A stretch of DNA of 32,000 nt from Vibrio cholerae ATCC 14035 (lineage in GTDB: Bacteria > Pseudomonadota > Gammaproteobacteria > Enterobacterales > Vibrionaceae), in contig NZ_JHXR01000003.1 in NCBI RefSeq assembly GCF_000621645.1, forward strand, positions 120,001-152,000, written 5' to 3'. Under the pieces are notes generated by a model, which worked only from the letters and a program-made list of their open reading frames with translations, was not told the origin of the DNA and did no database searches. Below, piece by piece: positions 2,525-8,090 of this stretch; positions within the stretch are counted from its first letter, which is position 1, and each line of letters begins with the position of its first letter. The position numbers were made by a program, and so were the translations under genes.

Positions 2525-3007
2525 TCAGTTTGATGTAGCGTCTGTGGCTACCAATGTCGCGGCAGTGTCGAGCTTGCCATCCTTATCAACCAAAACCAGA
2601 CGTTGATGATCACTTGAGAGTTTGACCCATTTGATCTGCTCAATTTCTGGCTGACGCCAATTCAGGATAAACAGTGATGTATTCTCATCTTGCTCAAAGC
2701 CGCGCTCGGTATTGAGTTCCCCAAGCGTTACCTGCCCATCAACAGACATCCGATAGCCATCACCGTGACCAATGATCTCCAAGCTGACGGATTTACCATC
2801 CACTACGCCATGGTAGATCACACCATCGAAAGCATCGTAGGCAATATCATCCATGCTGTGATCACAACTTTGCGTTGCCTGCTGGTAAGCACCTCCCGCA
2901 TCTAAACAGCGATCTTGAGCGATAAACTCCCGTCCCCAAAATTGATAAAGCAAGCCGATGGAGACAAGGCCAATGCCTAGCAAAGCCGTGATGCTCTTTT
3001 TACTCAT
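2525..3007 (-). CDS. Hypothetical membrane-anchored or secreted protein (160 aa)
   Basis: The ORF has GC content typical of the core genome. The N-terminal hydrophobic segment MSKKSITALLGIGLVSIGLLY suggests a signal peptide or anchor. I recognise no family motifs. Confidence 0.55.
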   Translation of the reverse strand: MSKKSITALLGIGLVSIGLLYQFWGREFIAQDRCLDAGGAYQQATQSCDHSMDDIAYDAFDGVIYHGVVDGKSVSLEIIGHGDGYRMSVDGQVTLGELNTERGFEQDENTSLFILNWRQPEIEQIKWVKLSSDHQRLVLVDKDGKLDTAATLVATDATSN

Positions 3008-3130: not shown

Positions 3131-3142
3131 GGGGGGGGGGGG
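3131..3142. repeat. Homopolymeric G12 (C12 on the minus strand) tract in a region with no supported gene
   Basis: Direct read: ...aatggt GGGGGGGGGGGG cgaagg. It lies 124-135 nt upstream of the minus-strand start codon at 3007. Confidence 0.9.
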
Positions 3143-3619
3143 CGAAGGACACGCTAACCCTTGCCCACTTATCGCGCCACGATTTGCTGAGGCTTGGATG
3201 CTGGTTATTCCAAGTATTCACGAACAGATGTGCCTGTTTTGCTTGCTACAATGTGGCTGGGGCATAAATGGTTTTAAGATCTGCTGCAAGGGCTTACATT
3301 GTTTCCAACTTACAAAGCAGAGGCTATTGGATTTTTGGTGCACTACACTATCGAGTATATTGGTGCTAATGCCCGCAGCTGCAAAGCTGTTTATCTCATT
3401 TCTTTATGAGCTTAAGATCAAAGTTGCCGTTGCGAGTGTTTACACTGTTTTTATCGGCAACATCATGTTTGGCGTAACTAAGATGCTGCTCTATCTCGGC
3501 CCAAGTGCATGTTAGGCGAGTGTTTTTGTTAGCTGCTTATACTATATATTGTTCACCAAGCAGGTATTTTAGGTATTTGTAGTCCGCTACTAACTGAACG
3601 ATAAGCTGGTCTTATATTG

Positions 3620-4237
3620 TCACATTGTAAGTTCTCGTAAAATATATTTAAAATTACCACTTTTTATAAATTTATTGGTTAGTTCATGTCTATTGTGTTT
3701 TGTTGCTTTTAAAATGTATATTAATCTTTCTATTTGTTTTTTTCTTTCTAGTTGTAGGTGTGGTTTATTTAAGCCTAACATGTCGATTGTAGTTTGAATA
3801 CTATGCTTTTCTTTTCTGTTTTTAAACCCGCGAGGATTTATAAAACCATCAGTGTTTAAAGAGAAATGACTATTGCATGATGGTGATGTCGGCTCAATAA
3901 ATAAAATGTTATCTTTCTTTTTTTGTCCACAAGTTTGAGTCTTACGATTTTCTTGAATACATGAAACAGCATAATTACTGTAGGTGAAACAGAGATTAGG
4001 TTGAGCATTTCTTCCCGATTTTGGTTTAATATGTTCAACTTGCATTTCATCAACGCTATATTTTTTTTCACAGTATACACATAGTTCACCTTGGAGAGTG
4101 TGTAGTCTATCTCTTACAATTTTCTTTACTCCTTGAAAGTCATGTGCACTGAAATCTTGAATGGTCAAAGATTGACCTTTTAATTTGACATAATTTTCAA
4201 GTTCAGTAGGAGTATTATTGTGTGATAATGGAATCAT
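3620..4237 (-). CDS. Retron-associated HNH endonuclease (PtuB-like effector subunit), 205 aa
   Basis: This is the last gene of the cassette and starts 12 nt after the ATPase stop. The HNH/zinc-ribbon pattern is present: LCVYCEKK ... VEHIKPKS ... N ... AVSCIQENRKTQTCGQKK. The 205-codon size matches orf205 of retron-Vc95 as I recall it. Confidence 0.8.
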   Translation of the reverse strand: MIPLSHNNTPTELENYVKLKGQSLTIQDFSAHDFQGVKKIVRDRLHTLQGELCVYCEKKYSVDEMQVEHIKPKSGRNAQPNLCFTYSNYAVSCIQENRKTQTCGQKKKDNILFIEPTSPSCNSHFSLNTDGFINPRGFKNRKEKHSIQTTIDMLGLNKPHLQLERKKQIERLIYILKATKHNRHELTNKFIKSGNFKYILRELTM

Positions 4238-4249
4238 AATATTTATCTC

Positions 4250-5871
4250 TTAGTCATCACTTTCAGATTTATCGATAAAAAATTCACGATTTTCTGCTAT
4301 AAAACGCCACATTTCAATGTCTGCTATATCAAATGTATATCCAGTGCTTTCTATGCGTTTTTTAATCTCTTTGGTCTTTCGACAATCTTCTTGTCCTCTT
4401 TTCACCAGAGATTCATATTTTTTTATAAGAGCTAAAATTTCTTCACTATGAACTAATGGAGATTCGGATGTTTCCATGATAGCTAGTGCATCCGAGGCAT
4501 TTTTGCCAAATGGATTGCTTGTTGGAGATAGTAATTTGAATCTATAGTCTAATTCATTAATTATTTTTATTTGTTCCGAAGTAACTGTTGTTAGAACTAG
4601 TGGGCTATGCGTTGATAGGATGAATTGGATATTTGGGAAGGTATTTTCTAGTTTTTGAACAATAGTTTGTTGCCATTTAGGATGTAAATGAAGATCAATT
4701 TCATCGATTAAAACAATACCATATCCATTTAACGGATTTTCTAAGCTAGGATTTAGTATTACTAATCTTCGAGCGATATCAGAAACCAAAGCGATAAGTG
4801 TTTTCTCACCCTGAGATAGATTAAAAATACTAATCTCACTTCCATTTTTTATAACTGTCATATCTAAGTGAGGTGTTCTACTTATCTTAACTTGATCTAT
4901 ATCGGATACAAAAGTTTTTATGGACTCTTGAATTACTTTTTGTTGTCTAATTAAAAATTCTCTATCTTCATTATTGTTGTAATTATTTTTTTTCTCTAGT
5001 AATTGAGAAATAAGACTTCCTATTTTCTCTTTGTTATCAGTCTTAGATAATAAATATTCAATTTCCTCCTTTGTTATAGAGTCATTTGCTTTGAATTCAT
5101 TAATAATATCATCAATTTCTTTGTACCAAGAAAAAAATCATTGAAATTAGATGTGCCATCAAAGGCATTTTTTAGACCTTCACTTTTATCACTATATTTG
5201 GCTTTTTTTCGTTCATAATATTTTACAGCGTCATCTCTTTTAAGAGTTACTGAACGTTCAACTGGATAATAGGCTAATAAAGGGTAAGAGAGAGTATTAT
5301 TATCCAGTTCATTAGAGCGTTGGTACATGCGTGCTAGAGCTTTAAATTCTTCAAGCTCACTAGACACTTTTCTTGATATGTTTTCTCTGTTCTTTGTTAG
5401 GCTACATGAAAAAGAAAAATCATTTTCTATTTCCAAAATACATCTTACAATGGTTTGTCCGCTTATTGAATGGATATTAATTTCTGAATCTTGGAATTTG
5501 TAGTTGTTATTATTTTGGATTCTGATGTTATCAGAAAGAAATTGTAGGCATTTGGATATAGATTCAAGGATAGTACTTTTTCCGGAACCGTTATTACCAA
5601 TAATGATCGTTGTATTTTTTTCTGATGACGTGAATTTTAATTTGGAGAATTTCTTGTAATCATACAAGGAGATATTTCTGAGTCTGATTTTAGCATTGTT
5701 GATAATACGTGACACGTTTCTTAGATATAGTTCACTCTGTTCTATGTCCCTTTCTAAAACTTCACCATCGTAGTAATACTCAGAAACAGTAAAGGATGAG
5801 TACAGATCTCCCTGTTTAGCCTGTCTAATTTTATCTTTAACATATTTGGGGATTCTAGTTGGCTCATTCAT
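4250..5871 (-). pseudogene. Retron-associated ABC/SMC-like ATPase (PtuA-like), interrupted by a 1-nt frameshift in a T7 run
   Basis: The 5074-5871 fragment carries Walker A (GNNGSGKST). The 4250-4861 ORF carries the signature-like LSQGEK, Walker B (VLIDEIDLHLHP) and the H-loop (LSTHSP). My manual translation shows the downstream frame is open from 5137 all the way to 4250. The two frames overlap at the run A7(+)/T7(-) at 5131-5137. One extra T gives a single ORF of 1623 nt, which is 540 aa plus a stop. Confidence 0.85.
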
Positions 5872-6843
5872 TTAGTTACTTCCTCTGAGAATTTTTTCAA
5901 CGATGTTCACTTTATATTTATGGCTAAGTCGATGAATATATATAGGCTCTATATTATATGCGAACGCTAACATCCCTTTCATGTGATTAATTTCATCAAT
6001 GTCAAGATTTTTATTTATGTATTTAAATACTAGAGAAGAGATATATCTTTTCCTACTTCTTCCTATTGATATTTTACTATCGTTAGTTAATGTTATACCA
6101 GTAACATGACGATTGTGCTTTTTAGATGAGAAAACGGTTTTTCTTTTATTAATTATTATTCTTCCAGCATATGTTTGTATAATTAACTGCTCAACTATTT
6201 CTGGTAGCTTATTTAAAGTGTTTTTTATGTTGGTTGAGAATGTGATATCGTCTGCGTACCTGGTATAGTTAATGCCATGCTTAGTGCATATATCATTAAT
6301 TATTTTGTCAAATGGGTACATAATAGCATTGGATATTAATGGTGATATAGGAGATCCAACGCTCAATATTAGCTTTCCGTTCCTTTTTTTACTTGGGTTC
6401 CAGAATATCAATTGTTCTAGTTTTTCTAACTCATTTACTGAAAGTAGAATGTCATTTTGAATTAAACATTGTCGTAGAATGGTTGGAGTAATACTATTAA
6501 AAAAATTTTGGAAGTCCATTTTTAATACATAGGCAGAGTGACTGTGTACTAGAGCATTATCTTTTATACTTCTACCCTTGACATATGCATAGCTTGAGTC
6601 ATGTACCTTCAATAATGGATTTAGGATAGCATTCAAATGGCGCTGACAAATTTTGAGCTTACTAGAAGGATGCGCGATTGTCCGCCGCCCTGCTTTTCTT
6701 TTGGGAATTGAGTATACCTTATATGCATGAGAGCCTCTAACCTCAAGTCTCTCGAACTCCTGAGGCATAATTACATTGTTTGTTAAAAGTTGCTCTCTTA
6801 ATGTGGTTAGTATATTCAATTTTGTCCTTTTAAGAGTAAACAA
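5872..6843 (-). CDS. ret: Retron-type reverse transcriptase (323 aa from a TTG start; the N-terminus is uncertain)
   Basis: RT motifs are present: [10 protein letters not shown] (motif A region), [12 protein letters not shown], and the YADD catalytic box ([11 protein letters not shown]). The retron-specific VTG motif ([22 protein letters not shown]) aligns with the Ec86 RT as I recall it. The gene lies immediately downstream of an msr/msd-like structure. Its stop abuts the ATPase ATG (TAAATG at 5869-5874). Confidence 0.9.
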
Positions 6844-6865
6844 CCCAAGTATAAATTAACTTGGG

Positions 6866-7049
6866 TTGTTGCTAGCTCTTTACTAGAGACAGCGAAATGG
6901 AGGTTTTTCTCTCCTCTCGCAGTTCAGGGAAATGCGAGAGGAGAGAAAAACCTCCATTTCGCAACCCCAGTGTCGTTCAATAAATTTCAGTCTGGCTAAA
7001 CGCCCGACTAGACTAATATGTGTAGTCCATTCGCTAAAGAGCACAACAA
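6866..7049 (-). ncRNA. msr-msd: Retron non-coding RNA (msr-msd); the msd template lies at roughly 6883-6977
   Basis: On the minus strand, a1 is TTGTTGTGCTCTTTA (7049-7035), followed at once by an AGC triplet (7035-7033) with the putative branching G opposite c7034. The context TTAGCGA is the same as in Ec86 as I recall it. a2 is TAAAGAGCTAGCAACAA (6882-6866); it is complementary to a1 with a small bulge. msr hairpins occur at about 6990-7030. A 30-bp msd stem is also present. Confidence 0.8.
6892..6962. repeat. Perfect 30-bp inverted repeat with an 11-nt loop (the msd stem-loop)
   Basis: gcgaaatggaggtttttctctcctctcgca (6892-6921) is the exact reverse complement of tgcgagaggagagaaaaacctccatttcgc (6933-6962). 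The loop is gttcagggaaa (6922-6932). Confidence 0.95.
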
Positions 7050-7077
7050 TTTTAATTCATATAGAATCACTTCACAA
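7049..7077 (-). promoter_or_regulatory. Candidate sigma70 promoter for the retron transcript
   Basis: On the minus strand, TTGTGA (7077-7072) is followed by a 17-nt spacer and TAAAAT (7054-7049), placing initiation at about the a1 repeat. This rests on sequence pattern only. Confidence 0.35.
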
Positions 7078-7304
7078 GCATACCGATTGCGCAGTAATGT
7101 GAGTCTAATGGATCTAATGGATAGATTAATTGAGGAATGGGTATAGGAACCTGTGACCAGCCGCCTAGGGCTAGGTGGTACATGTAATAGGGATATGTGT
7201 AATATCGATGAATAAATGGAATAGATTGTCGTCTTGCGTTTCGCTGTTTTGATGTTTTGAGCAGTGATACTGTTGGGCTTTGTCATTCAAGATGTTGATT
7301 AGAA

Positions 7305-8090
7305 ATGGAACTTTCACTGGAAGTATTGGGGCTGCTGTTTTTAGTGGCGGGAGTTGCGGGATTCATTGATGCCATGGCGGGCGGTGGCGGTTTGCTGACT
7401 TTACCAGCCTTGCTGGCCGCAGGGGTTCCTCCGACTCAAGCTCTGGCGACCAACAAACTGCAAAGCTCCTTTGGTAGCTTTTCGGCCACGCTCTATTTTG
7501 TGCGCAAGGGCGTTGTGAGCCTAAAAGCGATGCGATTGGCGATTGCTTGTACTTTTGTCGGCGCGGCGCTTGGCGCAGAAGCGGTGCAATATATTGATGC
7601 CACTTTGCTGACCAGCCTTATCCCCCTGTTACTGCTCGGAATTTCGCTCTATTTCTTATTGGCACCGACCACCAAAACGCACACAGGGCCTGCGCCTTTA
7701 TCCGAAACCGCGTTTGCCTTCACGGTAGGTTTTGGTATCGGTTTTTATGATGGCTTTTTTGGCCCCGGTACAGGCTCAATTTTTACCGTCTGCTTTGTGG
7801 CTTTGGGGCATTTTAGTTTAGTTGAAGCCACCGCTCGCACCAAGGTACTCAATTTTACGTCCAACATTGCCGCGTTGACCTTCTTCTTAATCGCTGGTTT
7901 GCCGATTTGGGAAATTGGCTTAACCATGGCGGTAGGTGGATTTATCGGCGCTCGTATGGGCGCAAAAGTGGTGATTAGCAAAGGGCAGCGTTGGATCCGC
8001 CCGTTGGTGATCACCATGTCTATGCTGATGGCGCTAAAACTGCTTTGGGAACAGCATCATGCAGCGCTGTTATCAATGCTTGGACTCTAG
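7305..8090 (+). CDS. yfcA: TauE/SafE-family membrane protein (YfcA-like, UPF0721)
   Basis: The 261-aa polytopic membrane protein has an N-terminus GFIDAMAGGGGLLTLPALL ... ATNKLQSSFGS that is characteristic of YfcA/TauE proteins. Confidence 0.75.
   Translation: MELSLEVLGLLFLVAGVAGFIDAMAGGGGLLTLPALLAAGVPPTQALATNKLQSSFGSFSATLYFVRKGVVSLKAMRLAIACTFVGAALGAEAVQYIDATLLTSLIPLLLLGISLYFLLAPTTKTHTGPAPLSETAFAFTVGFGIGFYDGFFGPGTGSIFTVCFVALGHFSLVEATARTKVLNFTSNIAALTFFLIAGLPIWEIGLTMAVGGFIGARMGAKVVISKGQRWIRPLVITMSMLMALKLLWEQHHAALLSMLGL

Follow-up and report, generated by a model that had tools for sequence, protein, structure and literature searches.

What is encoded at positions 6866-7049 of a 32,000-nucleotide (nt) stretch of the Vibrio cholerae ATCC 14035 genome (assembly GCF_000621645.1, contig NZ_JHXR01000003.1, positions 120,001-152,000; hereafter the window), and does the system to which this segment belongs appear intact in this strain? 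A sequence-only reading had interpreted the segment as the msr/msd architecture of a retron, without recognising it as a published one. Our analysis indicates that the region almost certainly holds the msr-msd non-coding RNA (ncRNA) gene of the type I-A retron Retron-Vch1 (Vc95), with its promoter before it and a hairpin after it. The element is thus already known, and there is nothing new in the msr-msd itself; Vc95 was reportedly first described in V. cholerae O1/O139 in 1999 by Shimamoto and co-workers, with Inouye and co-workers (2011) as a further source. Positions given below are those of the window, and features lie on its minus strand unless stated otherwise.

The evidence obtained directly here comprises the sequence with its structure and covariation, the genes present and the identity to V. 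cholerae genomes. The Rfam msr family (RF00170) gives a full-length match at 6972-7042, scoring 78.6 bits against a gathering threshold of 52 (E = 5e-13). Adjoining the ncRNA on the same strand is a retron reverse transcriptase (RT) gene (5872-6843), which matches Pfam RVT_1, PADLOC RT_I-A (5.5e-126) and NCBIfam retron_St85_RT (308.6 bits, cut-off 235), and whose translation contains YADD and HVTG motifs. Further along, and likewise matched in PADLOC and NCBIfam, are a split ptuA-like SMC/ABC ATPase gene (orf540, 4250-5871) and a ptuB-like gene for an HNH nuclease of 205 amino acids (aa; orf205, 3620-4237). The two ATPase fragments match the PADLOC models PtuA (3.9e-64 and 7.1e-77) and ATPase_I-A (1e-52 and 1.4e-65), and the HNH protein matches PtuB (9.5e-106), HNH_I-A (1.7e-29) and TIGR02646, the 'retron system putative HNH endonuclease' (80 bits, cut-off 52). 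The order ncRNA, RT, ATPase, HNH is that of type I-A retrons as defined by Mestre et al. (2020), the type in which Vc95 has been classed (PMC7736814). We also see that 3.8 kb of the window (3500-7300) match V. cholerae O395 (CP001235.1) and further V. cholerae chromosomes with 100% identity, and that the retron is flanked by carB and TauE/LysR genes, the gene neighbourhood found in every V. cholerae chromosome fetched. According to published work, Vc95 (RT, ATPase, HNH and msr-msd) adjoins VC2384 in all pandemic strains, and Vc95, Vc81 and Vc137 have a common insertion site. Taken together, the msr match, the RT/PtuA/PtuB gene order, the V. cholerae match and the insertion site identify the region as the msr-msd gene of Vc95.

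The structure of the ncRNA was assessed by folding and by comparison with homologues. Folded as RNA, the segment 6840-7060 gives a dG of -109.3 kcal/mol, compared to a shuffle mean of -51.8 (z = -13.3, with 0/200 shuffles as stable), so that the folding check suggested by the sequence-only reading returns a structure far beyond chance. For the comparative work, 26 RT homologues were aligned and 80 loci were fetched from species-representative genomes; the RTs of these loci are 43-54% identical to that of the window, and identities of about 40-58% have been given for the retron subgroup of Vc95 (PMC6868368). V. cholerae itself was not returned by this RT-alignment scan of species-representative genomes, with 80 loci kept; apparently its species representative lacks Vc95 or falls outside the loci kept. 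Identity to V. cholerae was instead established via exact-protein matches. An msr-like sequence lies upstream of the RT gene in 74 of the 80 loci, and a search anchored on the putative branch G found CUUUA-G in every locus, followed 117-168 nt downstream by UAAAG(A/G)G. Minimum-free-energy folds of 265-nt windows were also tried for each homologue and rejected as noisy, with outer helices swallowing downstream hairpins; the anchored search and a trimmed alignment were used in their place.

Covariation was scored on a trimmed MAFFT alignment of 20 diverse loci with the stems in register, for which the consensus comprises four helices: a1/a2, two msr hairpins and the msd stem. Compensatory double changes occur in 31 of the 48 consensus pairs. 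Standard pairs fill 96.7% of cells, a value that falls to 72.1% when the 3' letters are shuffled and to 38-43% when the 3' partners are slid by 1-3 columns, and the covariation score is 0.662 compared to 0.190 after shuffling (0/500 shuffles reach the observed value). As covariation stands far above both the shuffled and the slid controls, the structure is strongly supported. Lack of conservation or covariation among homologues had been named beforehand as a possible refutation of the retron interpretation; instead all four helices covary across the 20 loci, which, alongside the above-threshold RF00170 match and the retron RT downstream on the same strand, upholds that interpretation. The msd stem shows compensatory changes in 23 of 27 pairs, almost all of them Watson-Crick, and 97.9% of its cells pair. 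G-U cells number 2 in about 490 in the msd stem core, versus 27 in 240 in the two msr hairpins. A G-U pair in an RNA template becomes a C-A mismatch in the complementary DNA (cDNA), and the scarcity of G-U cells is in line with a stem that has to pair as DNA too.

A promoter scan places a -35 hexamer TTGTGA at 7072-7077 and a -10 hexamer TAAAAT at 7049-7054, and both correspond to conserved boxes in the homologues, where a TTGa.. box at -43 to -38 and a TAaacT box at -20 to -15 from the branch G keep the same register in 73 loci. Transcription is predicted to start at about 7042-7044, 6-8 nt past the -10 hexamer, and the Rfam msr model begins at 7042, coinciding with this position. The a1 core GCUCUUUA (7035-7042) then pairs with the a2 core UAAAGAGC (6875-6882) to form an 8-bp stem that brackets the msr-msd and carries G7034 and the facing G6883 at its end, an arrangement conserved in 75 loci. 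The inner seven pairs are nearly invariant and the outer pairs covary (GC in 8 sequences, AU in 7 and GU in 3); contiguous a1/a2 stems in homologues are mostly 8-9 bp long, with a range of 7-13. The sequence-only reading had a1 followed by AGC, thereby counting the last A of a1 twice, but the base that it singled out is the right one: the nucleotide following a1 is G7034, in the context TTTAGCGA, with a UUAGCGA surrounding that we take to be the same as in Ec86. This G, directly after CUUUA, is invariant in 75/75 loci. It is the putative branching guanosine, the 2'-OH of which would prime cDNA synthesis, a role assigned by homology to Ec86 and Eco7. Position 6883 corresponds to the 'opposing G' of the Eco7 work (PMC12673091), the base that lies across from the branch G where the a1/a2 stem ends; immediately 5' of a2 there is a G in 70/70 loci.

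Between these anchors, the two msr hairpins proposed from the sequence are recovered at 7028-7010 and 7009-6989 by folding, and both covary. Stem-loop 1 (GGACUA/UAGUCU, 7-nt loop, 7010-7028) has compensatory changes in 3 of 5 pairs. Stem-loop 2 (AGUCGGGC/GCCAGACU, 6989-7009) contains one internal G/A mismatch within (A)GUCGGGC/GCCAGAC(U), which is also kept in homologues; 99.3% of its cells are paired, with AU<->UA and CG<->UA swaps. In solved type I-A retrons, this second stem-loop is the handle for the RT thumb (PMC12673091, PMC11974896). It is followed by the linker GAAAUUUAUU (6979-6988), the 3' end of which is a UUAUU termination/clamp motif with invariant alignment columns. We mapped this linker onto the Eco7 termination state, wherein U(-49) is flipped out while A(-47) sits in the active site (PMC12673091).

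In the msd hairpin (6892-6962), the arms 6933-6962 and 6892-6921 form a perfect stem of 30 bp around a loop of 11 nt (6922-6932, TTTCCCTGAAC) within which three further pairs are possible. The exact complementarity described in the sequence-only reading is confirmed, and an inverted-repeat search returns this palindrome as the longest in the 32-kb window. That a perfect stem of such length should be remarkable in itself is not borne out. Mismatch-free msd stems are common in the clade: homologous msd hairpins span 21-37 bp, many without mismatches, and the multicopy single-stranded DNAs (msDNAs) of the retron group of Vc95 have been noted to lack them (PMC3335539). Among the homologues, the Vc95 stem ranks with the longer ones but is not unusual. 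As a separate observation, a conserved 9-nt motif, TCRTKCYTC, occurs at the apex of the msd hairpin in 32 of 62 homologous msd regions (e.g. L049 and L036), where shuffling predicts 0.4 loci; the Vc95 loop TTTCCCTGAAC does not carry it. In two draft V. cholerae assemblies, stretches of N coincide with or adjoin the msd hairpin (L002, 3257-3391; L004, 3223-3265), and the perfect palindrome probably breaks short-read assembly.

The ends of the msDNA were predicted by applying the start and stop rules from the Eco7 structure to the window. In Eco7, the a1/a2 stem ends with the branch G opposite the opposing G, and synthesis ends in a 6-bp RNA-DNA hybrid right after the 10-nt linker that follows stem-loop 2, with the last linker U flipped out and not copied (PMC12673091). 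With G6883 as the opposing G, the cDNA would run from 6884 to 6978, the last templated base being G6978, which gives exactly 95 nt and matches the name Vc95. The msd template is thus placed at 6884-6978, with the plus strand of this interval as the predicted msDNA and 6973-6978 as the predicted 6-bp hybrid at its 3' end. A 95-nt product had also been proposed from the sequence, with a span of about 6883 to about 6977; the length agrees, but the span is likelier shifted by one base, to 6884-6978. Folded as DNA, the predicted product has a dG of -41.5 kcal/mol (z = -13.7). The boundary rules were also examined on an E. coli type I-A locus (L093), where the distance from branch G to opposing G is 133, compared to 127 quoted for Eco7; L093 is for this reason a retron other than Eco7, and it confirms the relative layout only, i.e. 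a 10-nt linker and then a 6-nt hybrid. A second E. coli locus (L092) was rejected for this purpose, being a type II-A retron. The predicted 5' end of the msDNA is TAGA (6884-6887, plus strand), which is the commonest 5' tetranucleotide among homologues (26/70). TAGA is listed as a recognition and cleavage motif for Vc95 (PMC11701397), and in retrons of the Ec78/Ec83 kind an ExoVII-dependent cut takes off the four initial nucleotides of the msDNA. According to PMC6868368, a branched 2'-5' RNA-DNA product has been reported for Vc95 in the literature which that article cites.

Directly after a2 lies a 12-bp hairpin (AACAACCCAAGU/ACUUGGGUUGUU, 6839-6870) with a weak U-rich tail. A hairpin occupies the same place in 65 of 67 homologous loci (L007-L086), where its sequences are unrelated and a T-run is often present, and it is also covered by the Rfam STnc400 model, which aligns to 6825-6969, from the msd hairpin through the hairpin after a2, with 69 bits, below its gathering score of 80. 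In form it resembles a terminator or attenuator that separates the ncRNA from the RT gene. Its 3' arm holds the first in-frame TTG of the RT reading frame. The true RT start is probably the TTG at 6819, which stands behind an AAGGA ribosome-binding site and gives a protein of 315 aa, rather than the longest-frame start at 6843; most public genomes annotate the RT as 315 aa.

These data allow two alternative interpretations of the ncRNA to be weighed. In the pairing first drawn from the sequence, a1 (TTGTTGTGCTCTTTA, 7049-7035) and a2 (TAAAGAGCTAGCAACAA, 6882-6866), both present where they were placed, form a long duplex with an internal loop of T versus TAG, in a transcript that starts upstream of 7049. 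The outer 6 bp, TTGTTG/CAACAA, are indeed complementary, and contiguous stems reach 13 bp in some homologues. An outer helix also forms in the RNA fold of 7060-6840, but in another register (UGUUG with UAGCA). Against this, 7049 is the last base of the -10 hexamer, in register in 73 loci, and a start 6-8 nt further on would leave 7049-7044 largely untranscribed, so that the outer half of a1 is mostly promoter and not RNA. The outer part of a2 is in turn overlapped by the trailing hairpin, of which 6866-6870 is the 5' arm. With the mostly 8-9 bp stems of the family and the start of the Rfam msr model at 7042 pointing the same way, we consider the long duplex improbable. The 8-bp core stands, but the proposed 15/17-nt extent, with its outer 6 bp (7049-7044 with 6871-6866), is doubtful; the conserved pairing is probably the core only, 7042-7035 with 6882-6875. 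The second alternative detaches the long hairpin from reverse transcription altogether, as a stand-alone small RNA or an intrinsic terminator, with a resemblance to the Salmonella small-RNA candidate STnc400, or as the palindromic end of a mobile element. The sub-threshold STnc400 match (69 versus 80 bits) could be read in this way, as could weak matches to microRNA-precursor models, although such matches arise for any long hairpin; the microRNA and H/ACA hits were set aside as generic and far below threshold. The STnc400 alignment, however, covers what is here the retron ncRNA, and the Salmonella STnc400 locus would itself correspond to the msd region of retron St85. The hairpin moreover lies between an above-threshold msr and the a2 repeat, directly upstream of a retron RT gene, its covariation is almost only Watson-Crick, unlike that of RNA-only helices, no U-tract follows directly after it, and no second copy is found in the 32-kb window. 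We give this alternative next to no weight.

A different question is whether the retron is still under selection in this strain. A frameshift in a run of seven T (T7, 5131-5137) splits ptuA into frames of 265 aa, with Walker A, and 203 aa, with Walker B; adding one T restores a 540-aa ATPase. A type I-A retron has an intact ATPase, and the window contains a homologue that is frameshifted. T7 is the minority ptuA allele; T8, with an intact protein of 540 aa, is the state of most V. cholerae genomes. Exact copies of the 540-aa protein occur in 7271 blocks of the collection, compared to 169 blocks for the HNH allele of the window and 133 contigs for the 265-aa fragment. The O395 proteins ABQ19872.1 and ABQ20843.1 are the same ATPase fragments, and the T7 allele occurs in O395-like genomes. 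Five loci with intact ptuA carry T8 and are otherwise nearly identical to the window, with few single-nucleotide polymorphisms (SNPs) outside the ncRNA and 100% identity within it. Position 3856 is A in 6/6 T7 loci and G in 5/5 T8 loci. Owing to this linkage between T7 and the SNP at 3856, seen in all six loci, the frameshift looks like a single mutation in one lineage rather than a phase switch, and phase variation of the T7/T8 run was rated unlikely. As defence in type I-A retrons depends on the ATPase (PMC11974896 / PMC12475279), the allele is probably defence-dead, while msDNA is probably still made. Whether the whole element is then a decaying relic here, with ncRNA and RT released from selection and an intact structure that merely reflects recent inactivation, seems to us evenly balanced: the T7 allele separates Walker A from Walker B in an ATPase needed for defence, and the NCBI annotation pipeline PGAP calls no gene at the frameshifted ATPase in two genomes, but RT, HNH and ncRNA are intact, and the ncRNA is identical to that of intact-ptuA strains. 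Such decay would in any case concern present function only and leaves the sequence identity of the element unaffected. A long shot is that T7, which reads U UUU UUU in the original frame, acts as a slippery heptamer, at which a -1 ribosomal or transcriptional slip would restore the 540-aa ATPase and give low-level or switchable, phase-variable control of a toxic effector, in place of a simple loss of the gene.

Some observations also weigh against the assignment of the region to Vc95 as a type I-A defence retron. Both effectors score below the NCBIfam equivalog cut-offs (PtuA, 410.6 compared to 500; PtuB, 88 compared to 150), and because ptuA is frameshifted, the mechanism may fail in this strain at the defence stage. 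Identity with the published Vc95 msDNA is presumed from the genome match, the gene content and a predicted length of 95 nt. Homology is the basis for the putative assignments of transcription start, branch point, exact ends of RNA and msDNA, TAGA cut and defence mechanism. In addition, the boundary rule that yields 95 nt for the window yields 80 nt for a Yersinia frederiksenii locus whose msDNA was named Yf79 by computational prediction, so an error of about 1 nt in the msDNA ends is possible.

For the Vc95 element, the following mechanism can be proposed. The sigma-70 promoter (-35 at 7077-7072, -10 at 7054-7049) would start a transcript at about 7042-7044, in which pairing of the a1 core with the a2 core would set the branch G7034 opposite the invariant G6883. 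The RT encoded downstream would hold msr stem-loop 2, prime on the 2'-OH of G7034 and copy from 6884 up to G6978, where the conserved UUAUU|G motif would halt synthesis. This would yield an msDNA of 95 nt that forms a perfect 30-bp DNA hairpin and stays joined to the msr RNA via a 6-bp RNA-DNA hybrid; as in Ec78 and Ec83, this msDNA probably loses its initial TAGA by cleavage. The DNA hairpin would then serve as a scaffold that holds PtuA ATPase dimers and the PtuB HNH nuclease inactive; on destruction of the msDNA by phage nucleases, PtuAB would be freed to cut host tRNA and abort the infection. In solved E. coli type I-A retrons, the DNA hairpin threads two PtuA dimers, which hold PtuB; the T3 exonuclease and the T5 D15 nuclease act as triggers by degrading the msDNA, after which the complex falls apart and the HNH protein cuts tRNA-Ser or tRNA-Tyr, stopping translation (PMC11974896 / PMC12475279, PMC12673091). 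Phage defence that depends on RT, ATPase and HNH has been demonstrated for E. coli type I-A retrons (PMC11974896, PMC12673091); in the literature searched, we found no defence mechanism or phage-defence test for Vc95 itself. The suggestion made from the sequence that the msd stem is the part sensed during infection agrees with the mechanism of the solved systems.

Comparison with known systems places the element further. With Retron-Vch1 (Vc95) it has in common the 100% V. cholerae match, the insertion site, the gene order, the ATPase (540 aa once repaired), the 205-aa HNH protein and the 95-nt msDNA beginning with TAGA, and it is the same element; the window differs in its T7 ptuA allele and in a few SNPs outside the ncRNA. 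The repaired ATPase and the HNH protein presumably correspond to orf540 and orf205 of the original Vc95 papers. Retron-Eco7 (Ec78), Retron-Eco4 (Ec83) and the E. coli FORC82 retron, which are solved type I-A systems, have the same architecture and protein families, including msr stem-loop 2, the UUAUUG termination motif, the opposing G and a long msd hairpin, and their mechanism, in which the msDNA is both scaffold and sensor and PtuAB is a toxin that cuts tRNA, may be expected to apply here as well. Their msd stem sequences are nevertheless unrelated, and the Vc95 stem is longer (30 bp, with an msDNA of 95 nt compared to 77-83 nt). Retron-Sen2 (St85)/STnc400, of type II-A1, belongs to the same RT clade and the same ncRNA family (IA/IIA1), and the msd plus trailing hairpin of Vc95 aligns to STnc400 at 69 bits, but this match is under the gathering score of 80 and the effector of Retron-Sen2 is a nucleoside deoxyribosyltransferase-like protein, not PtuA/PtuB. 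Retron-Eco1 (Ec86) has the general msr/msd logic in common, but has another RT clade and effector, an msDNA that stays branched and a longer a1/a2 stem. Finally, Septu (PtuA-PtuB) is the homologous effector pair, and the best PADLOC matches here are to the PtuA and PtuB models; Septu works without an RT or msDNA, whereas in the retron the msDNA controls PtuAB.

With Vc95 known since 1999, type I-A structures solved and their defence mechanism worked out, the discovery value of the locus is low. Its value is mainly for annotation, as positions are now assigned to the promoter, a1/a2, branch G, opposing G, msDNA ends and trailing hairpin, and in the family-wide covariation. The broken ATPase allele matters for studies of retron defence in this strain, or for retron-based editing with this ncRNA.

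Compared to a more divergent V. cholerae strain (L091), the window shows many differences in the flanks, from 7418 upward and from 2888 downward, while the retron island at about 3140-7400 is almost identical. A near-identical island between diverged flanks is consistent with recent sharing of a mobile island at a site known as a defence hotspot. A 160-aa reading frame at 2525-3007, which separates the HNH gene from carB, has no match in Pfam, PADLOC or NCBIfam, and every V. cholerae locus examined has a gene call for it. Elsewhere in the window, and unrelated to the retron, the Rfam gltS RNA (RF02982) gives a full-length match at 25481-25582, with 101.7 bits against a threshold of 47.5.

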